From Nitrososphaeraceae archaeon (GTDB lineage Archaea > Thermoproteota > Nitrososphaeria > Nitrososphaerales > Nitrososphaeraceae), in contig DASSVK010000054.1 of NCBI GenBank assembly GCA_035706205.1, forward strand, positions 15,839 through 79,838: a stretch of 64,000 bases of DNA. The letters are read 5' to 3'. Under the pieces are notes generated by a model, which had not been told where the DNA came from, searched no databases, and was given only the letters and a program-made list of their open reading frames with translations. Position numbers and translations under genes: made by a program. Below are positions 22,345-56,172 of the stretch, piece after piece. Position 1 is the stretch's first letter, and each line of letters begins with the position of its first letter.

Positions 22345-23502
22345 TCAATCCACCTTTTTAAATATATGGACTGCGGCACTTGCTCCTGTTGCACCAAAAT
22401 TGTGAGTTAAAGCAATTTGTGCATCTTTAATTGTTCTTTCTCCAGATTTTCCAGTAAATTGTTCAAAAACTTCAACAACTTGTCCTACTCCTGTGGCTCC
22501 AATAGGATGACCTTTAGACTTCAATCCTCCAGATGGGTTAATTGGAATTTTCCCTTTTCTATAGGTTGCACCTTCACTAATTGCTTTAGCCGCTTTCCCT
22601 TTTTGAAAAAATCCTAGATCCTCTACATCAATTATCTCTGCAATTGTAAAACAATCATGAACTTCTGCAAAATCTATGTCTTCTGGAGTTATTCCAGCCA
22701 TTTTATAGGCTTGATTAGCAGCAGCAACTGTAGCTGGGATAGTAGTTATATCTTTTCTACCTTGAACAGCAGCAGGAGATCCACCTCGTCCTGATCCAAT
22801 AACTTGAATATATGGCTTTCCACTTTTCTTTGCAAAATCTTCACTACATATAATGACTGCAGAGGCACCATCTGAGAAAGGACAACAATCATATAATTTT
22901 AATGGAGAAGCAACTACAGGTGAATTAAGAACATCATCAACAGTAATTTTCTTGCGTACATGAGCTTTAGGATTTAGTAAGCCATTTTCATGATTTTTTA
23001 TTGCTACATTTGCTAGATCTTCTTCATCTGCTTTAAACTTAGTCATATAAGATCTTGCAATTGATGCAAATAAACCTGGAAAAGAAGCACCATTACCACC
23101 TTCGTAAAAAACATCGGAACAGTACGAGAAAAGAGTTGTACTTTGATTTGTTCCAGTATGAGTTATTTTTTCTACACCTAAAGCCAAAACACAATCATAA
23201 AAACCAGCACGAACATTTGCATATGCTTCCCTAAACATTATTGATCCTGAACCACATGCTGATTCAATAGTCAATCCAGGAACATGTGATATTCCTAAAT
23301 TACTCATAATAACTGGAGCCATATGTACTTGTTTATCTGCTACTCCAAAAACATTTGAAATATAACCGGCTTGAATATCATGAGGTGAAATTCCTGCAGA
23401 TTCAATAGCATCGACAGATGCATTAAGAGCTATTTCTATAACGCTTTCATTGAGCTTACCATATTTAGTACTACCAGCTCCTAAAATACAGACATTATTC
23501 AC
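22345..23502 (-). CDS. Acetyl-CoA C-acetyltransferase / acetoacetyl-CoA thiolase (archaeal SCP2-type)
   Basis: ESACGSG (catalytic Cys), NHENG..NP.AH, DCCPFSDGA, EVHDCF, NPSGGLKSKGHPIGATG. Confidence 0.93.
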   Translation of the reverse strand: MNNVCILGAGSTKYGKLNESVIEIALNASVDAIESAGISPHDIQAGYISNVFGVADKQVHMAPVIMSNLGISHVPGLTIESACGSGSIMFREAYANVRAGFYDCVLALGVEKITHTGTNQSTTLFSYCSDVFYEGGNGASFPGLFASIARSYMTKFKADEEDLANVAIKNHENGLLNPKAHVRKKITVDDVLNSPVVASPLKLYDCCPFSDGASAVIICSEDFAKKSGKPYIQVIGSGRGGSPAAVQGRKDITTIPATVAAANQAYKMAGITPEDIDFAEVHDCFTIAEIIDVEDLGFFQKGKAAKAISEGATYRKGKIPINPSGGLKSKGHPIGATGVGQVVEVFEQFTGKSGERTIKDAQIALTHNFGATGASAAVHIFKKVD

Positions 23503-23523
23503 AACATAAATTATTGTGAGTCG

Positions 23524-23531
23524 TATAAAAA
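23524..23531 (-). promoter_or_regulatory. Candidate archaeal TATA box (TTTTTATA) for a leaderless thiolase transcript
   Basis: Lies 22-29 nt upstream of the GTG at 23502. Confidence 0.45.
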
Positions 23532-23650
23532 GGTTAGACAGCTGAGATAAATAAAAATAGGATTTGATATGTAATATAAAACTTAAAATAAATCAAATTT
23601 GATTATGGTCATTTATTAATCTGTATGATTATACTATTAAAAAAAAAGTA

Positions 23651-23658
23651 TTTATAAA
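23651..23658 (+). promoter_or_regulatory. Candidate TATA box (TTTATAAA) with purine-rich BRE-like run upstream, for the 34-aa basic ORF
   Basis: Consensus TATA at -30..-23 relative to ATG 23681. Confidence 0.45.
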
Positions 23659-23680
23659 GAATTATAAAATATTAAAAAGA

Positions 23681-23785
23681 ATGAAAAAGGCATTTAAAAA
23701 GACACATGCATATAGTGAGAAGAGATCTCGTAGTAAGAAGGAAGCAAAATTAGAAAGAAGAATTAGAAAAAAACCCAAATATTAA
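23681..23785 (+). CDS. Small highly basic protein, 34 aa (below the ORF-track cutoff)
   Basis: MKKAFKKTHAYSEERSRSKKEAKLERRIRKKPKY*; 15/34 Lys+Arg; well-placed TATA box. Confidence 0.5.
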   Translation: MKKAFKKTHAYSEKRSRSKKEAKLERRIRKKPKY

Positions 23786-23851
23786 TAGATTTTATCTTCG
23801 ATTTTTAAAAATAAAAAACAATAAATAGATAAATCGTTTACATTAGTTAGT

Positions 23852-23965
23852 TTGAATAGAAATACAGAAACTAAAAAAAAAGTTACGAAAAAAGGCATGA
23901 TTATAACAATACTGATCGTTATTGGAATTGTAGCTGCTAGTTTTATTGTTTATCTTGTACCTTGA
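23852..23965 (+). CDS. 37-aa single-TM micro-ORF or truncated remnant of a membrane-anchored protein
   Basis: TTG start: MNRNTETKKKVTKKGMIITILIVIGIVAASFIVYLVP*; basic N-region followed by a 21-residue hydrophobic run that ends at the stop. Confidence 0.4.
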   Translation: MNRNTETKKKVTKKGMIITILIVIGIVAASFIVYLVP

Positions 23966-24937
23966 TTATTTGCTTAATACTTATAATGATATTATTATCC
24001 TTATTAATATAAAATAAAATATATCAAAAAATATTATAAATTGATTGAATAAAAAAAGAATATAGATGATATAATTTCTTATTATTTAATACCTTAATGG
24101 TAATATAATGATAATAACAATAATGAAATAATTTGCTTGTTATAATAAGCAATATATTATATATGCAGAAAAAAGTAATACTTTAGTTTATATGCTATAT
24201 TTGAACTCACAATATAAGTCTTGTATAATTACTCTCAATCAGTTCTTATTTGAGAATAAAATAATTTAAAACCATTAAAAAAATAATCTAAATATCTAAT
24301 AATAATATAGAGCAAAGATATGTTATCCAATATTATCCGATAAATCGATAAAGATCATAAATAATTATTTTATTATTATTATCCTTATTATCTCTAACCT
24401 TGAGGTATTATTAGATTTAGTAAAAATAAATTAATTATCTATAAGAGGTAATAGTCAAATCAATAATATAATACAATATCTATTAATTTATGATAATTTT
24501 ATACGAGATCACTTATTGAACGAATCTATATTAATTTGTATTTTTATTTGTATTTTTTATATTTATATTTGGAATAATAGTATAGTCAAATAGCCACTTA
24601 ATTTTTTTAAAATATAACACATAGATCCTGTACATTTTAAACCTTTTTATAAGATAAATTCTTTATCTTTCATCAGCATATGTTATCTTAGTACAATAAA
24701 ATAATAAACTTTAATAAATTCATAAATATATAAAAATTTTAATGCTTTATAAAATTTTATTATAACTTCCAATTATCAAAGAACCAGTTAACATAGTTGA
24801 ATTGCATTCATAAAAAATACAAGATTTGCTAAATACTATTAATTTAAAATAAATTGATATGGTGAAATTGTTAATGATATATTAATAAAATTTAATGATT
24901 TATTTTTATTAATAATTAGTAAAAAAAAAGAAGAATT

Positions 24938-25084
24938 TTATGTAGTAAATCCTCCAGTAGCAACTGTTATAACTATATAAACTAAAATAAAGATACCTAC
25001 AAAAATCCTTGTACCTTTAAGTGTATTTGCTAATGAAGACTCTTCCTTCTTTAAAGTATTGGTGTCTTTAGTCAATATAGCCAA
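24938..25084 (-). CDS. 48-aa small membrane protein
   Basis: TTG start: MAILTKDTNTLKKEESSLANTLKGTRIFVGIFILVYIVITVATGGFTT*; visibly higher GC than its flanks; one C-terminal TM helix. Confidence 0.45.
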   Translation of the reverse strand: MAILTKDTNTLKKEESSLANTLKGTRIFVGIFILVYIVITVATGGFTT

Positions 25085-25869
25085 AGTGTATGATAATTAT
25101 AAACCCATAGTAATAAAGGTTTAAGATGAATATATGGAGTAAACAATTTTTTATAGTAATTATTTTTTATTATAATATATTTTTCTTTAACGATACACAA
25201 AGTCAATAATCATCAATTATTTATAGACATATAATCTTATTAAATAATACAAATAAAGAATTTTAGAAATTAAAAAACTATAAAAATAAAATTAGAAATT
25301 CGAAAAAAATGAAAAAGAATAGAAGTTGTATCTGCAAGAATCTTTGATATTGGTTTAATCTAAAGATCAAATTTTTGTATAATTAACAAATTTTTGTTCT
25401 TATTTATAACGTTATTAAATATCATTTGCTGCTAAAAAACCGAGATGAATGTTAATAAGGTATTATCTATGAAGGACCTTAAATAAAAGAAATTGATGTT
25501 TGAATTTAGAAATATATGGATTTCTTGTAAATTTTTATCTCTTGGAAACTAATTACGTCAAATATTTAAGAATGTTATGTTCTTGAAACAGCTGAAGAAT
25601 TATTTCTATTTTATTAGAAAAAGAGTCTTTTGAATTAATATTTTTTTATCCTCAAAAATATAATTTATATAAAATATTTTACCTTTTTGTGGTAGCCAAT
25701 GATAGAAAATCGGTAGCTACAACTAACATATTATAATACTATTAAGGTTTTTAATATTAAATTCTATTTTAATTCTTTTAAAATCAAAGTATTAGGTATA
25801 TAAAATATTTTTAAAATAATTTATCTAAATCAAAAAAATTGGAATAGTATTTTCTAACTTGTATAAAAA

Positions 25870-26151
25870 TCAATGACCTTTATTGGACAATTCCCATACA
25901 AGATCATTAAACATGGTATTCATATGGTCAATTTTAAGCTCCATTCCTTCAAGTAAAGTAATGGCTTCTGCGGTATTATTTGATTTGACTAATTGTATAA
26001 CTTGGTCGACATTATTCGCTAATTGGGAATGAGTAAATCTCATATGACCCATCATTTGTTCTGCAGCACCTATTTGAGAATATACTTGTTGTACAAGACC
26101 AAAAAGAATTCCAATCACAACAATGAAGATTATGGATATAACTATCTTCAT
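25870..26151 (-). CDS. Small secreted or membrane-anchored helical protein, Met/His-rich
   Basis: Signal-like MKIVISIIFIVVIGILFGLVQQVYS. Start moved to ATG 26151 (track gives 26166) because TTTAAAAG at 26173-26180 sits at -22..-29. Confidence 0.65.
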   Translation of the reverse strand: MKIVISIIFIVVIGILFGLVQQVYSQIGAAEQMMGHMRFTHSQLANNVDQVIQLVKSNNTAEAITLLEGMELKIDHMNTMFNDLVWELSNKGH

Positions 26152-26553: not shown

Positions 26554-26647
26554 CGCCGGGAGAGGGATTTGAACCCTCGCGACCTTTCGGTCACAAGCTT
26601 ACTTGATAATTCCAGGCTTGCGCCCTTCCAGGCTAGGCGACCCCGGC
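26554..26647 (-). tRNA. tRNA-Ser(GGA) with a 10-nt intron at 37/38 (intron 26600-26609)
   Basis: Acceptor GCCGGGG/TCCCGGC, G73, anticodon stem CAAGC/GCTTG, loop CT-GGA-A|TTATCAAGTA|A, long variable arm GACC-GAAA-GGTC, T-arm GAGGG-TTCAAAT-CCCTC; CCA not encoded. Confidence 0.93.
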
Positions 26648-33612: not shown

Positions 33613-34434
33613 TTATAAACGTTTTATTGATAAATTTCCAGATTTATTTGATATTTTTTCTATATTACTCATCCTGTTTGCGATCAATGCAGCATATGAT
33701 CCTGCTCCTATTCCATTATCAATATTTACAACAGTTAATCCAAGTGCACAGCTTTGTAGCATAGAGGATAGAGCAGCTATACCATGAGAACCGAAACCAT
33801 ATCCAACAGAAGTAGGAACTCCAATAACAGGAACATTGACACAGGATGAAACTAAAGAAGCTAAAGCACCTTCCATACCTGCAACCACTACGATTGCCTG
33901 TACATTCTCTGACATCATCTTTTCAAGAGTTGGAAAAACTCTATGAATTCCTGCAATACCAATATCATAAGAAATAATTGATTCACAATTCATTGCTTTG
34001 GCCATTAATCTAGCTTCTTCTGCTATTCCTATATCTGATGTACCTCCTGAAATAATTCCTATCTTATAAGAATGACATTTAATTGTAGCAATCGTTGATA
34101 AAAGCATAGTAGAACTACTCTTACCAATTTCAAAATAGAGATTCTTTCTTTTTACAAAATCTATTATTTTTCTAATATGTTTCTTTTGAATCTTACTTAT
34201 AACTATTGTTTTATTTTTACCCAGTATATCAGAAATTATTTTTGTTATATCCGAATAATCCTTGTTTGCTGCAAATATTACTTCAGGAATTCCTTTTCTT
34301 ATTCTTCTATTAATATCTAATTTTGCAATATTTTTTCCTACATTATGAATATAAAAAGAAGTAATATGTCTTTTAAGTTCATTTATCGAGAGATTTCCAT
34401 TATTATATTCATTTAATAGTTCTTCAAATTCCAT
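33613..34434 (-). CDS. larB: Nickel-pincer nucleotide biosynthesis protein LarB (NaAD carboxylase/hydrolase)
   Basis: RKGIPEVIF, GGTSD..IAEEA, DIGIAGIHR, AGMEGALASLV, VIGVPTSVGYG, VVNIDNGIGA. Confidence 0.92.
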   Translation of the reverse strand: MEFEELLNEYNNGNLSINELKRHITSFYIHNVGKNIAKLDINRRIRKGIPEVIFAANKDYSDITKIISDILGKNKTIVISKIQKKHIRKIIDFVKRKNLYFEIGKSSSTMLLSTIATIKCHSYKIGIISGGTSDIGIAEEARLMAKAMNCESIISYDIGIAGIHRVFPTLEKMMSENVQAIVVVAGMEGALASLVSSCVNVPVIGVPTSVGYGFGSHGIAALSSMLQSCALGLTVVNIDNGIGAGSYAALIANRMSNIEKISNKSGNLSIKRL

Positions 34435-35357
34435 TATTTTATTTCTGACTGTACGAACTTTATTGCTTCTTTTACGCTTGTAACACCTAAATCAAAAATT
34501 TTTCTTTCATATTCGTTCAGCTGTAATTCAATAATCTTTTCAATACCATTTGATCCTAAGACTACTGGAACCCCTATACATAAATCAGATACACCATATT
34601 CGCCTTCTAAATAAGCAGAAACAGGTATTACTTGTTTTTTATTTTTTTTAATACTTTCGATCATTGTTGCAACTGCATTACCCGGGGCATACACAGTAGC
34701 TCCTTTTAATGCAATAACTTCGGCAGCAACTTTTTTTGTTCCTTCAAATATTTCTTGAGATTGTTCATTAGATAAAAATTCATTTAAAGGAATTCCACCA
34801 ATAGAAGAAAAACGAATCAATGGTAACATATTCTCGCCATGTTCACTAATTACCATAGCTTGAATAGATTTCCTTGAGAAACCAGTAATATCATGAATAA
34901 AACTTTTAAATCTAGCTAAATCTAGCATACCACCCATTCCAATTACCTTATTTTTCTTGAAACCAGTTGTTTTTAAAGCAAGATAAGTCATCGGATCTAA
35001 TGGATTAGTGACAACAATTACTCTTGCATCATTAGCATGTGTTGAAATTTTATGGGAGACATCCTTTACAATACTAGCATTTTTATTTAATAAATCCATT
35101 CTAGTCATTCCTGGTTTTCTTCCTAATCCTGCTACAAGTACAACAAAATCTGAATTCACCATATCCTCATAACTATTTGATCCTTTTACTCTAGAATCTA
35201 TACCATGTTCAGATAACTGATGATTAATATCCATTGCTTCACCTTGTGGGAGTCCTTCAATTACATCTAACAATAAAATATCATCTAATTCTCTGAGTCC
35301 ACAATTTAATGCAACAGATGCACCTACTCGTCCAGATCCTACTATTGTAATTGTCAT
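34434..35357 (-). CDS. mdh: Malate dehydrogenase (LDH-like)
   Basis: [16 protein letters not shown] (malate-specific Arg), VTNPLD, LDLARF, EHGE; TAATG overlap with larB. Confidence 0.94.
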
Positions 35358-35495
35358 AGAGTGGATTATTTTTAGATAAATTATAAGTTTACTAAAACAT
35401 TTACTGCATAAAGGTTAAATTTTCATTATTGATTAGATTAAAATAAGAAAAGTAATTTTAATGTATGTTTAGTTATTATTGTAACCAATAGAATT

Positions 35496-36749
35496 ATGGC
35501 TAAAATTTCAATAATTGACGCTCAGCTTGCTGGTTTATCAGGAGATATGATTTTATCTGCTTTAATAGATTTAGGAGCAGATAAAAAAAAAGTAATTGAT
35601 TCGATATACAAATGTGAAAATATTTTTTCAGGAAGCAAGATAAAGGATGCTAGGTTCGAAAAAGTAAATTCTAATGGATTTAATGCTACCAGATTTTATT
35701 TTGAATATAATGAGAAAATTTATCAAAGAAAAGGAATTGAAATGGTTAGAGCCTTATCTAAATCCATAGAATATCTAGATTTAAAACCTCGTTCAAAGTC
35801 TTTTATTTTGGATTCAATAAAAACTTTAATAAATGCAGAAGCAAAAATTCATGGCGAATCTATAAGTCAAGTTCATCTTCATGAAGCTTCTAGTATTGAT
35901 ACTTTTGTTGATTTAATTGGTTGTGCAATTGCATTAGAGGATTTAAAGATTTTTGATTCAAAAATATATTCAACTTATATTTGTATAGGAAATGGTCTAA
36001 CTACCTTTTCTCATGGAACAATACCAAATCCCACAAATGCAGTTTTAGAAATTTTTAGAGGAAAATCATTTGTTCTAATCGGCAATGATCAAGGAGAAGT
36101 TACTACTCCAACAGGCGCAGCAATTTTAGTTAATCTATCTTCTGAATGTATCAGATATTATCCTCCTATAATTCCAGAAAAGATAGGTCTAGGAGCTGGT
36201 CATAGAATCTTAAAAAATACACCTAATATTCTTAGAATAGTCATTGGTAGGGACCCAGTTAGCGTTGGTTTAAATAATGAGAAAATGTTTTTAATTGAAA
36301 CAAATATAGATGATGTTGACGGAGAAATTATTGGTAATTTAATAGAGGTTTTGATGAAAGAAGGAGCAAAGGATGTAACGGTTATTCCTGGAATAACTAA
36401 AAAAAATAGACCTGTCAATTTAATAAGAATTCTCTCTGATAACTTTAAAAAGGAAATTCTTATTGAAAGATTATTTAAAGAAACCGGAACCTCAGGAATA
36501 AGAATTAATGAAATTAATAGAATAACGTTGGAGAGAAATATGATAATTATGCAAGTAGTCATTAATGAATCAGAGTATAATATTAAAGTAAAAATAACAA
36601 GAGATTCATCAAATAATATAATTAATATCAAACCCGAGTTTGAAGATTTAAAGAAAATATCTGAACTTGAAAATAATTCATTAAAAACTATTCAAGAATT
36701 AGTTATGTATCAAATATATAAAAAATTTAAGGCGAGTAATTATGAATAG
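35496..36749 (+). CDS. larC: Nickel-pincer nickel insertase LarC, single polypeptide
   Basis: GLSGDM.LSALIDLG, AEAKIHG....VHLHE...IDTFVD, EVTTPTGAA, ETNIDD, TKKNRP, ETGTSGIR, KPEFED. Confidence 0.93.
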   Translation: MAKISIIDAQLAGLSGDMILSALIDLGADKKKVIDSIYKCENIFSGSKIKDARFEKVNSNGFNATRFYFEYNEKIYQRKGIEMVRALSKSIEYLDLKPRSKSFILDSIKTLINAEAKIHGESISQVHLHEASSIDTFVDLIGCAIALEDLKIFDSKIYSTYICIGNGLTTFSHGTIPNPTNAVLEIFRGKSFVLIGNDQGEVTTPTGAAILVNLSSECIRYYPPIIPEKIGLGAGHRILKNTPNILRIVIGRDPVSVGLNNEKMFLIETNIDDVDGEIIGNLIEVLMKEGAKDVTVIPGITKKNRPVNLIRILSDNFKKEILIERLFKETGTSGIRINEINRITLERNMIIMQVVINESEYNIKVKITRDSSNNIINIKPEFEDLKKISELENNSLKTIQELVMYQIYKKFKASNYE

Positions 36750-37557
36750 TGACGAATGTTTTTTACAATTAAAAGACTGGTTTATTAAAAATACAAATGG
36801 AAATGTATTCATAGCATTTTCTGGAGGGGTAGATAGTGCGATAGTAGCATTTGCGGCTAAAAAAGCAATAGGCGAAAAAGCAATTGCCATTACTGCAAAT
36901 TATAAGACTTTAGCATTATCTGAACTTGAAGATGCCAAAAGAGTAGCAAATGAGATAGGAATTCATCATGTAATAATTGAATATAATGAATTGGAAGATA
37001 CCAATTTTATCAAAAATGATATACAAAGATGTTACTATTGTCGAAAAAGTCTAGGCGAACATATCAAAGCATATGTAAAAAAATACCAGGTTACAAACAT
37101 TATTGATGGAACCCATTTGGATGATATAAAAGATTATCGTCCTGGTTTGAAAGCGTTGAGAGAACACAAAATTAAAAGTCCTTTATTAGAGAAAAGAATA
37201 GGAAAAAAAGAAATAAGAGAAATTGCTAAAAAATATAATATTAGTGTAGCAAATAAGCCTTCTAATTCGTGTTTAGCATCTAGAATTCCATATGGAAATA
37301 GGATTACCCAAGAGAAATTAAAAAAAATTGAAATTTCAGAGGAAAAAGTTAAAGAGTTATTTAATATTAGTCATGTTAGAGTAAGAGATCATGGAGATAT
37401 AGCTAGAATAGAAATTTCAAGAGATGAAATGGAAAAAATGTTTGATAAAAGAAAACTTAATCAACTGGATGCAGAATTAAAAAGTACAGGTTTCAAATAT
37501 GTCTCTTTAGATTTATATGGATACAGATCTCGAAAGCTAATTGTGATTAATGATTGA
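36742..37557 (+). CDS. larE: Nickel-pincer sulfur transferase LarE
   Basis: AFSGGVDS PP-loop, RCYYCRK, DYRPG, KPSNSCLASRIPYG, RVRDHG..ARIE, LDLYGYRS. Confidence 0.93.
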   Translation: MNSDECFLQLKDWFIKNTNGNVFIAFSGGVDSAIVAFAAKKAIGEKAIAITANYKTLALSELEDAKRVANEIGIHHVIIEYNELEDTNFIKNDIQRCYYCRKSLGEHIKAYVKKYQVTNIIDGTHLDDIKDYRPGLKALREHKIKSPLLEKRIGKKEIREIAKKYNISVANKPSNSCLASRIPYGNRITQEKLKKIEISEEKVKELFNISHVRVRDHGDIARIEISRDEMEKMFDKRKLNQLDAELKSTGFKYVSLDLYGYRSRKLIVIND

Positions 37558-38759
37558 GTAAAACTAAAATTAATAATAATTTGATTTATTTAGATCATGC
37601 AGCTTCCACTCCTGTACTTCAAGAAATAATTGATGAAATGATACCATATTTAGGAAATTTATTTGGTAACCCATCTTCAATTCATACTCATGGAATAAAA
37701 TCAAAAATTGCAATTCAAATTGCAAGAAAAAGGGTTGCTGCATTAATATATTCCAAACCTAGTGAGATTTATTTTACATCAGGCGGGACAGAATCGAATA
37801 ATTTAGCTTTGAAAGGAATATGCAAAAATATTAGAAACAATCAAAAAATAAAAAATCATATAATTACCAGTGCTATCGAACATGATGCAATTTTAGAAAC
37901 CTGTAAGAATTTAGAAAAAGACGGATTTGATATTTCATATTTGAATGTAGATAGAAATGGAATTATTGATAAAAGTGAATTAAAAAAATATCTTACAGAA
38001 AAAACAATATTAGTTAGTATAATGTCAGCTAATAATGAAATTGGTACTATTCAACCAATTAAAGAATTATCTGAAATTGTTCATAATTTTGATAAAAAGA
38101 TAATATTTCATTCTGATGCAGTTCAAGCTGCTGGTAAAATACCGATAAATGTTAAAGAATTAGATGTTGATGCGTTATCATTGTCATCCCATAAAATGAA
38201 TGGACCAAAAGGAGTTGGAGCCTTATATGTACGCGATAAAGTAAAATTTGAGCCCTTGATACATGGTGGTGGACAAGAATTGAATCTTAGATCAGGAACT
38301 GAAAATGTCCATGGTATTGTGGGTTTTGGAAAAGCTTGTGAGATAAGTATGAGAAATTTGAAAAATAATTCTCAGTATATGTGTTATTTGAGAGACTTTT
38401 TAATTGATCAAATAAAGAAAGAGATTCCAGATAAAAAATTGAATGGTTCTTTGGAATACAGATTACCAAATAATGTCAATTTTACATTTTTAGGGATAAA
38501 TGGAGAGGATCTGCTGATTAAATTGGATGAAGACGGAATTTTAGCATCTACAGGTTCTGCATGTTCTACCAACAGACAAAAAGAATCTCATGTATTGAAA
38601 GCTATTGGTCTTAATCATGAAGAAATCTCTGGTTCAATAAGGTTTTCATTAGGAATACAGAATACTATTGAAGATATAGAAAAAACTATCATCGTTTTAA
38701 AGCAAAGAATAACTGAGCTCTTGAAGATTTCACCATTGAAACAAAAGTATAAAGAGTAG
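37554..38759 (+). CDS. iscS: Cysteine desulfurase (IscS/NifS, group I)
   Basis: YLDHAASTP, GNPSS, SGGTESNN, HSDAVQ, SSHKMNGPKG (PLP Lys), RSGTEN, TGSACS (persulfide Cys); overlaps the larE stop. Confidence 0.94.
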   Translation: MSKTKINNNLIYLDHAASTPVLQEIIDEMIPYLGNLFGNPSSIHTHGIKSKIAIQIARKRVAALIYSKPSEIYFTSGGTESNNLALKGICKNIRNNQKIKNHIITSAIEHDAILETCKNLEKDGFDISYLNVDRNGIIDKSELKKYLTEKTILVSIMSANNEIGTIQPIKELSEIVHNFDKKIIFHSDAVQAAGKIPINVKELDVDALSLSSHKMNGPKGVGALYVRDKVKFEPLIHGGGQELNLRSGTENVHGIVGFGKACEISMRNLKNNSQYMCYLRDFLIDQIKKEIPDKKLNGSLEYRLPNNVNFTFLGINGEDLLIKLDEDGILASTGSACSTNRQKESHVLKAIGLNHEEISGSIRFSLGIQNTIEDIEKTIIVLKQRITELLKISPLKQKYKE

Positions 38760-38797: not shown

Positions 38798-39277
38798 ATG
38801 CAGAATTCAGAAAAAATTCCAAATATAGGGGATACAGCACCAGACTTTGAATTAGTTAATGAGGAAATGAAAAGGATGAAATTGAGTGATATAAAAGATA
38901 AAAAAATAATTCTTGCTTTTTTCCCTGCTGCGGAATCTCCTGTGTGTACTGCCGAAATGTGTAACTTTAGAGACTATTTAAGTGATTTAAATAACAAAAA
39001 TGCACAGGTAATTGGGATATCTATTGATGGTCCTTTTGCTAATAAGTTTTTCAAAGAAAATCGTCATCTGAATTTTCCATTATTAAGTGACTATAATAGA
39101 GAAGTAATTAAAAAATATAATGTTGTAATGAAAGATCTAGCATCACTTAAAGGTTATAATGCTGCCAAAAGAGCCATTTTTATATTAGATAAAGATAAAA
39201 AAATACAATATAAATGGATTTCAGATAATCCATTGATTGAGCCTAATTATAAAGAAATTATGAATAACCTCAAATAG
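38798..39277 (+). CDS. Peroxiredoxin (AhpC/BCP family)
   Basis: GDTAPDFEL, FFPAAESPVCTAEMC (PxxxTxxC-like, with resolving Cys), KRAIFILD. Confidence 0.9.
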   Translation: MQNSEKIPNIGDTAPDFELVNEEMKRMKLSDIKDKKIILAFFPAAESPVCTAEMCNFRDYLSDLNNKNAQVIGISIDGPFANKFFKENRHLNFPLLSDYNREVIKKYNVVMKDLASLKGYNAAKRAIFILDKDKKIQYKWISDNPLIEPNYKEIMNNLK

Positions 39278-39327: not shown

Positions 39328-39840
39328 CTAATCTATTATAGCAACAACTTCGTTTCTTGAGACAGTTGAACCCTCTTTTACTTTGACTTCCTTTACTACA
39401 CCATCTTTATGAGACTTAACAGCAATTTGCATTTTCATAGATTCAAGAACTAAAATAGGATCACCTTCCTTTATTGTATCATCTTTTTTAACAGAGACTT
39501 TAACGACTCTACCCGGTATTTGGCTGGTTATATTATTAGCTCGACTTACAGTTCCCTTAGCACTTAAAGATTTTTCTATAATTTCGGTTATTTTGGATTG
39601 TTTCTTTATTTCAATTATGACTCCGTCAATAAAAATTTTATATTTTGTTTCAGTAGAAGAAAGAATTTTTACATGATGAAATGTATTACCCAGCATAAAT
39701 TCAAATTCATCTGATTTTGATTTTAAAATTTTTAAATTATATTTTTTTCCATCTATTTCAAATAAAAGATCACCTTCTCCTTTATTGTATATCAATTCGG
39801 CATTAATTAATTCAGGTCGACCCTCTATTTGAAATTTCAT
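39328..39840 (-). CDS. accB: Biotin carboxyl carrier subunit of acetyl-/propionyl-CoA carboxylase
   Basis: LESMKM biotinylation motif in a C-terminal lipoyl-type domain. Confidence 0.92.
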   Translation of the reverse strand: MKFQIEGRPELINAELIYNKGEGDLLFEIDGKKYNLKILKSKSDEFEFMLGNTFHHVKILSSTETKYKIFIDGVIIEIKKQSKITEIIEKSLSAKGTVSRANNITSQIPGRVVKVSVKKDDTIKEGDPILVLESMKMQIAVKSHKDGVVKEVKVKEGSTVSRNEVVAIID

Positions 39841-41342
39841 TAATAAAATCCTCCACTCATTGACTTTTGTATTTTATTCAATCGTTGAGGACTTAAATTT
39901 GATTTTTTTACATATTCAGATTGTAATAAAATTGCCGATATTGCTGCATATGCTTTGTCTTTGTATTCCTGACTTCTTTTTTGTTTCATCTTTTCTATAA
40001 TATTATATTTCTCAATATAATCAGTAGAAATATTGCCATTTATAAAATTAGATTCTTCTATAATTGTTTTATGAATTGGAATAGTAGTATTTATTCCTTC
40101 AATAGTAAATTCAAATAAAGCATTCTTCATTCTTACTCGTGCTTCGTTAAAGTCACCACCATAGGTAATTAATTTAGCAATTAATGAATCGTAATAACCA
40201 GACACATTACAACCTGGATAGAGAAAAGTATCCACTCTGACTCCAGGTCCAGAAGGAATATTGCAATTTGGAATAAATCCTACAGATGGAGTAAAATCAT
40301 AAAAGGGATCCTCAGAATTTATACGACATTCTATGGCACAGCCTTTTAATTCAAGATCTTTTTGTTTAAATGGTATTTCTTCACCTTGAGCAACTTGAAT
40401 TTGTAACTTGACAAGATCCTTTCCAGTAACAAGTTCAGTAACTGGATGTTCAACTTGTAATCTAGCATTAATTTCAATAAAATAAAAATTGCCTTTAGAA
40501 TCAGATAAAAATTCTGCTGTTCCAGCGTTTAAATAGTCTAGAGCAGTACTTGCACGTACTGCAATTTCTCCTACTTTTTCTCTAATTTCTTTATTAACTA
40601 CCGGTGAAGGTGACATTTCAATAAGTTTTTGGTGTCTTCTTTGAATAGAACATTCCCTTTCGAAAAGATGTCTACCATTTCCACTAGAATCTCTTAGCAA
40701 TTGATATTCAATATGCCTGATGTTGGTAAGATATTTTTCTATAAATAATGCAGACTTGCCAAATGCTGCTTTTGATTCATTTGATGCTAGTTCAAATTCT
40801 TGTCTAAGTTCTTTTTCGTTACTTACCAATCTAATGCCTCTTCCTCCTCCTCCATAAGCAGATTTAAGCATCACAGGATAACCTGCGTCCTTAGCGATAT
40901 CTACAGCCAATTCTATATCTTCAACTACTCCATCACTTCCAGGTACAGTAGGAACTTCAGCTTTTTTCATTATTTCTTTACATTTCATTTTATCTCCAGC
41001 TAACTCCATCGCTTTTGCGGTTGGACCTATAAAAATAATGTTATTTTTCTTACACTCCTCAGAAAATAATTCATTTTCAGAGAGAAATCCATAACCAGGA
41101 TGTATAGCATCGGCACCAGATAATTTAGCTATATCAATTATTTTGTCTATACAAAGGTAACTTTCTGACGCTTGTGCTGCGCCCAATCTATATGATTCAT
41201 CAGCTCTTTTAACATGTATTGATCGATTATCTTCATCTGAATAAACTGAGATTGATTTTATTCCCAAATCTTTGCATGCTCTAATAACACGTAGAGCAAT
41301 CTCTCCACGGTTTGCTATAAGAATGCTTGAAATTTTGGACAT
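39840..41342 (-). CDS. accC: Biotin carboxylase subunit
   Basis: ANRGEIA, HPGYGFLSEN, GGGGRGIR, RHIEYQ, CSIQRRHQKLIE, EINARLQVEHPVTE, YDSLIAKL. Confidence 0.96.
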   Translation of the reverse strand: MSKISSILIANRGEIALRVIRACKDLGIKSISVYSDEDNRSIHVKRADESYRLGAAQASESYLCIDKIIDIAKLSGADAIHPGYGFLSENELFSEECKKNNIIFIGPTAKAMELAGDKMKCKEIMKKAEVPTVPGSDGVVEDIELAVDIAKDAGYPVMLKSAYGGGGRGIRLVSNEKELRQEFELASNESKAAFGKSALFIEKYLTNIRHIEYQLLRDSSGNGRHLFERECSIQRRHQKLIEMSPSPVVNKEIREKVGEIAVRASTALDYLNAGTAEFLSDSKGNFYFIEINARLQVEHPVTELVTGKDLVKLQIQVAQGEEIPFKQKDLELKGCAIECRINSEDPFYDFTPSVGFIPNCNIPSGPGVRVDTFLYPGCNVSGYYDSLIAKLITYGGDFNEARVRMKNALFEFTIEGINTTIPIHKTIIEESNFINGNISTDYIEKYNIIEKMKQKRSQEYKDKAYAAISAILLQSEYVKKSNLSPQRLNKIQKSMSGGFY

Positions 41343-41352
41343 CTAACTTCAC

Positions 41353-42894
41353 CTATAAATTGATATTCCCATGTTTTTTCCATGGACCCGTTTCTTTCTT
41401 TCCTAATAATGATGCAATAGCTCCTATTATCATAGTTCGAGTTTCCATAGGATCAATTACTAGATCAATAATTCCTTTCTCTGCCGCAATATAGGGATTA
41501 GCAAATTTTTTCCTATATTCATCAGCTAATCTCTTTTTTGTTGTTTTTGCATCTTGAGAAGATTTAAGATCTCTTCTATGAATTATTGTAATTGCTGCTT
41601 CAGGTCCTAAAACTGCAATTTCTGCAGTAGGCCATGCAAAATTAATATCTGCTCTTAAGTTTTTACTCCCCATTGCAATATAAGCTCCGCCATACGCCTT
41701 TCCAATGATACAAGTAATCTTAGGCACTGTTGCTTCACAATATGCATATAATAATTTACTACCATGTCTAATTATTCCATTATGCTCTTGATCAGCACCT
41801 GGTAAATAACCAGGTGTATCAACTAACGTAATAATAGGTATATTAAAAGAATCACAAAATCTAATGAATCTTGCTGCTTTATTAGAAGAATCTATATCTA
41901 AAGCACCTGCTAAATACATTGGTTGATTAGCTACAATGCCAACTGTTTTACCATCCATTCTAGCAAAGCCTACAATGATATTGCTTGCAAAGGATTCATG
42001 AATTTCAAAAAAATCTTTATCGTCGATTATACTCATAATGATTGATTTAATATCGTATGGTTGATATGGATTCTCAGGCAACATATTAATCAATGAAGGA
42101 TCAAGTCTATTTGGGTCATCGTTTGATTCTATTGATGGTGGTTCTTCTAAATTGTTTTGAGGTAGAAATGAAAGTAATTTTTTAATTTTTTCCATACATT
42201 CATATTCATTAGCTGCAACCATATGAGCAACTCCTGACTTAGTTGCATGAGTAGAAGCTCCTCCGAGTTCTTCGAATGATACATCTTCACTTAAGACTTC
42301 CTTCACAACTTCAGGTCCAGTTACAAACATCTGTCCTATATTCTCTACCATTATTACAAAATCTGTCATTGCCGGAGAATATACAGCACCACCAGCACAA
42401 GGTCCTATGCTAGCAGTTATTTGAGGAATTATTCCAGAAGCAGTAGTATTTCTATAGAAAATATCACCATAGCCGTCTAAACTCATTACTCCTTCCTGAA
42501 TTCTGGCTCCACCAGAATCAAGAACTCCTATGATTGGTGCGCCTACTTTAATGGCTCTATCCATAATTTTTACAATTTTTCTTGATGCCATTTCACCCAA
42601 TGAGCCACCTAAAACTGTAAAATCATATGCGTACACAAAGATTTTTCTGCCGTTAATTGTTCCAAATCCCGTAATCATGGCATCCCCGTAGAATTTCGTA
42701 GTTTCAGGATCATCCTGTCTATGAGTCACATATTTATCCAATTCAATAAAACTTCCTTCATCAAGAAGAAGAGCAATTCGTTCTCTAGCCGTAAGTTTGC
42801 CTTTGGAATGTTGTATATCAATTTTATCTTTACCACCGCCAGATTCAGCTAAATTTTTTAATTCATACAATTTCTTTAACTTTTCTTCGTGCAT
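41353..42894 (-). CDS. Carboxyltransferase subunit of acetyl-/propionyl-CoA carboxylase (3HP/4HB cycle)
   Basis: KLTARERI, DFTVLGGSLG, DSGGARIQEG, GPCAGGAVY, DTPGYLPG, KAYGGAYIAM, KKHGNI. Confidence 0.95.
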   Translation of the reverse strand: MHEEKLKKLYELKNLAESGGGKDKIDIQHSKGKLTARERIALLLDEGSFIELDKYVTHRQDDPETTKFYGDAMITGFGTINGRKIFVYAYDFTVLGGSLGEMASRKIVKIMDRAIKVGAPIIGVLDSGGARIQEGVMSLDGYGDIFYRNTTASGIIPQITASIGPCAGGAVYSPAMTDFVIMVENIGQMFVTGPEVVKEVLSEDVSFEELGGASTHATKSGVAHMVAANEYECMEKIKKLLSFLPQNNLEEPPSIESNDDPNRLDPSLINMLPENPYQPYDIKSIIMSIIDDKDFFEIHESFASNIIVGFARMDGKTVGIVANQPMYLAGALDIDSSNKAARFIRFCDSFNIPIITLVDTPGYLPGADQEHNGIIRHGSKLLYAYCEATVPKITCIIGKAYGGAYIAMGSKNLRADINFAWPTAEIAVLGPEAAITIIHRRDLKSSQDAKTTKKRLADEYRKKFANPYIAAEKGIIDLVIDPMETRTMIIGAIASLLGKKETGPWKKHGNINL

Positions 42895-56072: not shown

Positions 56073-56172
56073 GGCCTTCGGAGGGATTTGAACCCTCCTC
56101 AAGCGGTTTCCACCATTTTACAAAATAAAAGACCACAGCCGCCTATACTAACCAGGCTATACTACGAAGGCC
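56073..56172 (-). tRNA. tRNA-His(GUG) with genomically encoded G-1 and a 25-nt intron at 37/38 (intron 56108-56132)
   Basis: G-1 + GCCTTCG/CGAAGGC + C73, anticodon stem GGCGG/CCGCT, loop CT-GTG-G|TCTTTTATTTTGTAAAATGGTGGAA|A, T-arm GAGGG-TTCAAAT-CCCTC. Confidence 0.93.

Follow-up and report, generated by a model that had tools for sequence, protein, structure and literature searches.

Nickel-pincer cofactor genes grouped around malate dehydrogenase, with no LarA partner, in ammonia-oxidising archaea

Nickel-pincer nucleotide (NPN), a cofactor, is made by the proteins LarB, LarE and LarC, and to date three protein folds are known as nickel-pincer users, two of them found in 2025-2026 (PMC13524815). 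The closest described counterpart of the genes reported here is the system of Thermotoga maritima, which includes LarA and in which LarE carries a [4Fe-4S] cluster, sacrifices no cysteine and turns over in the presence of the cysteine desulfurase IscS and cysteine (PMC9283937). Sets of larBCE genes without larA have been noted in about 15% of genomes, many cyanobacteria included (PMC11796402), and many genes beside larBCE that are annotated as NAD(P) oxidoreductases may be misannotated nickel-pincer enzymes (PMC13524815). Described users include NphT, a hydride transferase of aldo-keto reductase (AKR) fold that holds the mononucleotide form NPMN via His144 and Lys200 (PDB 9YEB; PMC13524815), and an ornithine cyclodeaminase (OCD) of Rossmann fold that uses the adenine-dinucleotide form NPAD (PMC13524815 and its reference 22). 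Here we analyse a lar gene block lying in a stretch of 64,000 nucleotides (hereafter the window) from a Nitrososphaeraceae archaeon (assembly GCA_035706205.1, contig DASSVK010000054.1, positions 15,839 to 79,838 of the forward strand). The block holds complete and intact larB, larC and larE genes, a malate dehydrogenase (MDH) gene, mdh, placed between larB and larC, and a cysteine desulfurase gene placed after larE; larA is absent from the window and from the whole assembly. We regard it as fairly probable that this block encodes a working nickel-pincer route serving a non-LarA enzyme encoded elsewhere in the genome, and that mdh is an ordinary neighbour acting in the tricarboxylic acid (TCA) cycle.

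The same LarB, LarE and LarC families are found here as in T. maritima, and all three proteins are orthologous to those of the Lactiplantibacillus plantarum larA-larBCDE operon, from which this locus differs in having neither larA nor larD. The coordinates given for larB, mdh, larC and larE in the original prediction for this DNA were right, and each product scores above its own curated family cut-off. The larB gene (33613-34434, minus strand) specifies the nicotinic acid adenine dinucleotide (NaAD) C5-carboxylase/hydrolase of cofactor step 1, with 233 bits against the equivalog model NF033503 (cut-off 175). Its product aligned to L. plantarum LarB (7MJ0) across residues 35-257 (E 1.6e-39), and its C-terminal active-site stretch, QSCALG/VVNIDNG, corresponds to NSCASG/VVNIDNG in 7MJ0. 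LarB was present in 36 of 41 relatives, and we take the Cys of the SCAxG stretch to be catalytic. The larC gene (35496-36749, plus strand) encodes a full-length CTP-dependent nickel insertase whose residues 7-399 match PF01969 (344 bits); the LarC1 part (146 bits, cut-off 90) and the LarC2 part (109 bits, cut-off 50) lie in a single 417-aa frame, unlike in L. plantarum, where larC1 and larC2 are joined by a frameshift.

The larE gene (36742-37557, plus strand), which overlaps larC by 8 bp, codes for an ATP-dependent sulfur insertase (281 bits against TIGR00268, cut-off 150). It shares with the T. maritima protein the SGGxDS motif (here SGGVDS) and a CXXC-C arrangement of three cysteines (Cys97, Cys100 and Cys177) whose spacing is identical to that of Cys92/95/172 in T. 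maritima LarE (PMC9283937); the triad was kept in all 20 of the relatives compared. LarE is thus assigned to the [4Fe-4S], catalytic type and not to the sacrificial single-Cys type of L. plantarum. The span of the original prediction was one gene too short, the conserved block also taking in the NifS/IscS-type cysteine desulfurase gene after larE (37554-38759, plus strand). Its start may be the first in-frame TTG at 37554, giving a 4-bp overlap with larE, or the TTG at 37581, 24 bp past the larE stop. The protein scores 282 bits against PF00266 and 491 bits against the NifS model TIGR03402, which is under the cut-off of 531 for that model, and it carries the pyridoxal phosphate-binding lysine motif SSHK and the catalytic-loop motif STGSAC. 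A desulfurase gene stands 3' of larE in each of the four ammonia-oxidiser families described below, as judged from representatives. As further class-V enzymes are encoded elsewhere in the genome, it is plausible that the desulfurase joined to larE is dedicated to sulfur donation. In T. maritima a cysteine desulfurase (IscS) is likewise the expected donor (PMC9283937), and its desulfurase genes are distant from larE; both the gene position seen here and this in-vitro precedent suggest that the desulfurase is the probable sulfur donor to LarE. Judged from these intact motifs, the pathway looks functional and catalytic, and production of the cofactor is a reasonable expectation.

The absence of LarA from the 64-kb window was confirmed and extends to the whole 2.26-Mb assembly (172 contigs, 97% complete). 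The whole-genome HMM check was run, and neither of the LarA profiles PF09861 and NF033504 gave a match in the assembly at E<=1; the DUF362 profile gave none either, and six LarA queries taken from relatives within the order reached a best tblastn E of 0.12 against the assembly, which is noise. The assembly encodes an archaeal amoA, and the host is therefore an ammonia-oxidising archaeon. We extended the comparison to 151 genomes sampled evenly across the order, with families coded f1 to f19. Only four families contain amoA, namely f1 (22/23 genomes), f4 (9/9), f9 (11/11) and f13 (23/23). LarC was found in 64 of the 66 genomes of these four families and LarA in none of the 66, many of which are closed. 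The orphan nickel-pincer pathway is therefore the rule among the sampled ammonia oxidisers and not a peculiarity of one genome, and the retention of lar genes in 64 of 66 genomes argues for their continued use. No paper in the literature collection that we searched ties lar genes to ammonia-oxidising archaea. Across the order LarA occurs in 22 of the 151 genomes and is limited to some non-oxidiser families (f5, f6, f14, f15, f19 and one f7 genome); LarC is missing from all 24 genomes of f10. The open frames that hold the LarA homologues of f15 (L038-L040) measure 655-675 aa and so exceed the usual LarA length by about 230 aa, which suggests fusion to another domain.

The presence of mdh between larB and larC also sets this locus apart from the T. 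maritima type. The mdh gene (34434-35357, minus strand) encodes a lactate dehydrogenase (LDH)-like, NAD-type L-malate dehydrogenase. Its predicted TAATG coupling to larB was borne out, one base being common to the stop of mdh and the start of larB in AAATAATGGAA, and so was the 138-bp spacer (35358-35495) that separates it from the divergent larC. In the genus, the order L18 < larB < mdh <> larC was found in all 22 loci that reach far enough; the 23rd locus (L017) ends inside mdh. Comparing the coordinates of the LarC and MDH searches, we found the two genes no more than 1.4 kb apart in 53 of the 64 ammonia oxidisers with both genes, where they are for the most part divergent and separated by 60-200 bp, and within 3.5 kb in two further ammonia-oxidiser genomes. 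The pairing was seen as well in the non-oxidiser families f5, f6, f7, f11 and f18, which makes nine families in all; it was absent in f12 (0/10), f15, f2 and f3. Within f7, a fragment of LarC2 size is all that is left of LarC, and it adjoins mdh in 10 of 10 genomes. In the three f7 loci L055-L057, from non-oxidisers, this piece of about 140 aa covers LarC positions 235-374 and has larE on one side and mdh on the other, larB (35% identity) stands 4-5 kb off and the PP-loop reads SAGVD/SSGVD; the f7 pathway may be a remodelled one that lacks the nickel domain LarC1.

The whole block, nifS-larE-larC <> mdh-larB, was recovered in representatives of all four oxidiser families. Genes for peroxiredoxin and for acetyl/propionyl-CoA carboxylase stand alongside it in f1, f4 and f9, and in f1 the ribosomal neighbours are syntenic too, which points to a generally stable core region. 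Open reading frames (ORFs) intervene between mdh and larB in f4, f9 and f7, and resemble ETF/FixC proteins by their N-terminal sequence only. Some genera have a membrane-like ORF of about 196 aa between larC and mdh that is genus-specific and has no Pfam match; it was dropped as a lead.

The intergenic region was aligned for 23 loci, 22 from the genus and one (L024) from another family. One AT-rich, promoter-like box, GATAAATTATAAGTTTACT, is kept about 10-40 nt from the mdh start and another, AAGTAATTTTAATTTATGT, about 30-45 nt from the larC start, with a spacer of variable length between them; either box sits roughly 30 nt upstream of one of the two start codons. No common operator or palindrome was seen in this alignment, and the idea of a common operator in the divergent promoter was dropped, as there are just two separate promoter-like boxes. 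Back-to-back core promoters with a short spacer are hard to part without harm to both genes. Together with the stability of the region, this leads us to infer that mdh is a housekeeping neighbour held in place by old synteny; the chief evidence to the contrary is how persistent the mdh-larC pair is.

The MDH itself has the features of an ordinary enzyme. It scores 383 bits against PRK06223 (cut-off 283), and it is the sole Ldh_1_N match and the only recognisable MDH in the genome, in which no type-2 MDH (Ldh_2) was found either, so the ordinary TCA-cycle reaction has to fall to this enzyme. The GxGxxG motif, the Asp after strand 2 (LLLD), Arg102/Arg109, Asn140, Asp168/Arg171 and His195 (SEHGE) are all kept. 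We assume for these residues the roles established for the LDH/MDH family, that is, the substrate-discriminating Arg, the catalytic His, Asp and Arg and the dinucleotide-binding motifs. The retained adenosine site counts against a mononucleotide cofactor and not against NPAD. The best solved relatives are the ordinary NAD-MDHs 4PLH, 2D4A and 1GUY, and the motifs were aligned to 4PLH. Orthologous MDHs of 46-52% identity occur in the LarC-less families f10, f17 and f19, and in the Lar-positive families f14 and f8 the MDH query gave LDH/MDH-type matches of just 28-30% identity, so that neither partner needs the other. We aligned 41 MDHs, drawn from genomes with linked lar genes, with unlinked lar genes or with none, and all NAD and catalytic motifs proved invariant; no His, Lys or Cys column divided the lar-linked from the Lar-less sequences, and the three columns that did divide them are conservative or surface-like. 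MDH was for this reason downgraded as an obvious nickel-pincer enzyme. Taken together, its being the only MDH, its kept motifs, its orthologues in LarC-less families and the alignment make it unlikely that MDH depends obligately on the cofactor.

These data are consistent with a scheme in which LarB would carboxylate NaAD, the [4Fe-4S]-type LarE would add two sulfur atoms catalytically and be recharged by the adjoining desulfurase, and LarC would put in nickel after the LarE step. The mdh product would be the cell's NAD-dependent MDH of the TCA cycle, its place in the cluster coming from an old and stable gene order and not from a need for the cofactor, and we infer a separate enzyme as user. 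The original prediction had left two choices for the client, a distant LarA homologue that racemises malate and feeds L-MDH or an NPN enzyme not recognised so far; the second is the reading we favour, and the first has found no support, there being no LarA- or DUF362-like sequence at permissive thresholds or by tblastn and no LarA in any of the 66 amoA-family genomes. The outcome that would have refuted the original prediction did not come about: no second locus of the genome holds a lactate racemase, and the mdh linkage, far from lacking conservation, reaches well beyond the genus. Several points nevertheless weigh against the favoured reading as a whole. No candidate user was found, and the central claim is reached by elimination. 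The mdh-larC pair is unusually persistent, its recurrence in 53 of 64 oxidisers and in f5, f6, f7, f11 and f18 exceeding most synteny in such diverged lineages, and in f7 it holds even where the LarC2-size fragment stands alone. A gene that adjoins larBCE and is annotated as an NAD(P) oxidoreductase can in truth be that of a nickel-pincer enzyme (PMC13524815), and that ammonia oxidisers produce the cofactor at all is a prediction from their genes.

One alternative is that MDH itself is the user, an NPAD-like dinucleotide replacing NAD or acting beside it in a malate racemase, a transhydrogenase or a specialised dehydrogenase. Its appeal lies in the divergent mdh-larC pairing of nine families, in the overlap of mdh with larB in the genus, and in the many lar-adjacent genes annotated as NAD(P) oxidoreductases, to which come the precedents of the Rossmann-fold OCD with NPAD and of the AKR with NPMN (PMC13524815). 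LarA-type malate racemases are an established case of nickel-pincer chemistry acting on malate (PMC11770544), and the retained GxGxxG and Asp would suit a dinucleotide such as NPAD. Orphan larBCE sets (PMC11796402) and the NphT/OCD systems (PMC13524815) offer a close parallel, a full LarA-less set with an embedded gene annotated as an NAD(P) oxidoreductase. Here, however, that gene codes for an LDH-like MDH, whose fold has not been reported among the users of the cofactor; it shows no sign of lost NAD binding and is accompanied in this genome by no OCD gene and no recognised NphT-like AKR. Were MDH the user, the TCA cycle would be left without an NAD-linked MDH, this being the only one recognisable; its orthologues survive in lar-less lineages with no residue telling the groups apart, its nearest solved relatives are ordinary NAD-MDHs, its nicotinamide-pocket motifs hold no extra His or Lys, and mdh is unlinked in the Lar-positive families f12 and f15. 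We consider this explanation unlikely.

Users of the known folds encoded elsewhere were also considered. An NPAD-dependent ornithine cyclodeaminase was dropped because the gene is absent from the genome, in which PF02423 (OCD/mu-crystallin) has no match at E<=0.01. That the user is an AKR of the NphT kind appears doubtful: the fold is among the three known to take the cofactor (PMC13524815) and the genome has four AKR genes, one of them very divergent, but two show the canonical SN/TN...Q cofactor motifs and a third is far nearer to NADPH-dependent AKRs, its match to 9YEB being weak (E 3.3e-5) and confined to N-terminal residues 1-130. The fourth and divergent one (C20:248-1369, locus L034, about 380 aa, without a close solved relative) is found in 63 of the 66 ammonia-oxidiser genomes and is rare elsewhere in the order. 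It is missing from all 10 genomes of the Lar-positive f12 and present in one genome of the Lar-less f10 (the f7 count in this profiling takes in the unpublished genome G129, on which nothing else depends), and its alignment shows the usual Asp/Tyr/Lys/His tetrad with no added invariant His/Lys pair. At the level of motifs, of matches of two of them to solved structures and of the profiling of the divergent one, none of the four AKRs gave a sign of an NphT-like enzyme, the divergent one being core to ammonia oxidisers and uncorrelated with lar. A highly diverged LarA, for instance a malate racemase, that was missed or that falls within the 3% of the genome not assembled is very improbable; LarA does occur in non-oxidiser relatives and the assembly is in many contigs, yet the two LarA models, DUF362 and tblastn all failed to find one, none of the 66 amoA-positive genomes, many of them closed, showed LarA, and a distant LarA or DUF362 protein was accordingly dropped. 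It is also improbable that the product is a pyridinium dithiocarboxylate or a nickel compound without a dedicated protein user, or that the genes are relics. The lack of any user found would fit such a reading, and the LarC2-size piece kept alone by larE and mdh in f7 hints that the pathway can be remodelled; the genes are nonetheless intact, with catalytic motifs kept in 64 of 66 ammonia oxidisers over very deep divergence. We know of no free role for a compound of this kind.

Other neighbours of the lar genes were also inspected. Where mdh is not linked (f12, f2, f3, f14 and f8), the lar genes adjoin genes for nicotinate phosphoribosyltransferase (NAPRT)-like protein, Thi4, glyceraldehyde-3-phosphate dehydrogenase (GAPDH), phosphoglycerate kinase (PGK), a thiamine pyrophosphate (TPP) enzyme, uracil-DNA glycosylase (UDG) and TauE, with no consistent candidate among them. 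In f12 (L082-L085), a Lar-positive, LarA-negative family of non-oxidisers, a quinolinate/nicotinate phosphoribosyltransferase-like gene lies on the larB side and would supply the nicotinic acid mononucleotide (NaMN)/NaAD precursor, while the larE side has GAPDH and PGK. In f13 a radical-SAM protein of 525 aa is encoded directly after larB (L051:9854-11431). It was dropped as a candidate because its counterpart in the host genome is on another contig (C115:15210-16760, 80% identical); a paralogue of 32% identity lies on C54 upstream of the window. That the radical-SAM protein is conserved to so high a degree suggests a core function.

The remaining features of the surroundings are given here for completeness. 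The window is low in G+C, at about 29%. Genes for the archaeal ribosomal proteins L18, S5 and L30, identified by profile matches, lie just downstream of the lar block. On its other side the desulfurase gene is followed by a peroxiredoxin gene (38798-39277, plus strand) and by genes for the biotin carboxyl carrier protein, biotin carboxylase and carboxyltransferase of acetyl/propionyl-CoA carboxylase (39328-42894, minus strand), the key carboxylase of the 3-hydroxypropionate/4-hydroxybutyrate cycle. A segment of about 2.4 kb at 23500-25870 has 19% G+C and zero ORFs of at least 50 aa, and a repeat search of it gave nothing beyond a short 16-bp tandem repeat at 25146-25184. Two tRNA matches, at 56073-56171 (minus strand, 99 nt) and at 26554-26647 (minus strand, 94 nt), the latter just downstream of this AT-rich gap, are longer than a standard tRNA, so that an intron is probable in both.

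In soil and sea, ammonia-oxidising archaea belong to the most abundant microbes, and they drive nitrification. We put at slightly better than even the chance that every one of them makes a nickel-pincer cofactor for a new user fold, distinct from LarA, NphT-type AKRs and OCD, for which MDH, perhaps with an NPAD-like dinucleotide, is the prime suspect on position. If all make it, they would require nickel and possess a nickel enzyme in a way not described before. A nickel enzyme of unrecognised kind is probably present in this group. Orphan larBCE sets as such were known already; the interest here is their universality in a globally important clade together with a concrete candidate. A search for another user fold is well placed in an orphan pathway that runs through a whole clade and has cultured representatives, and the conserved position of mdh provides a concrete first candidate for that user.

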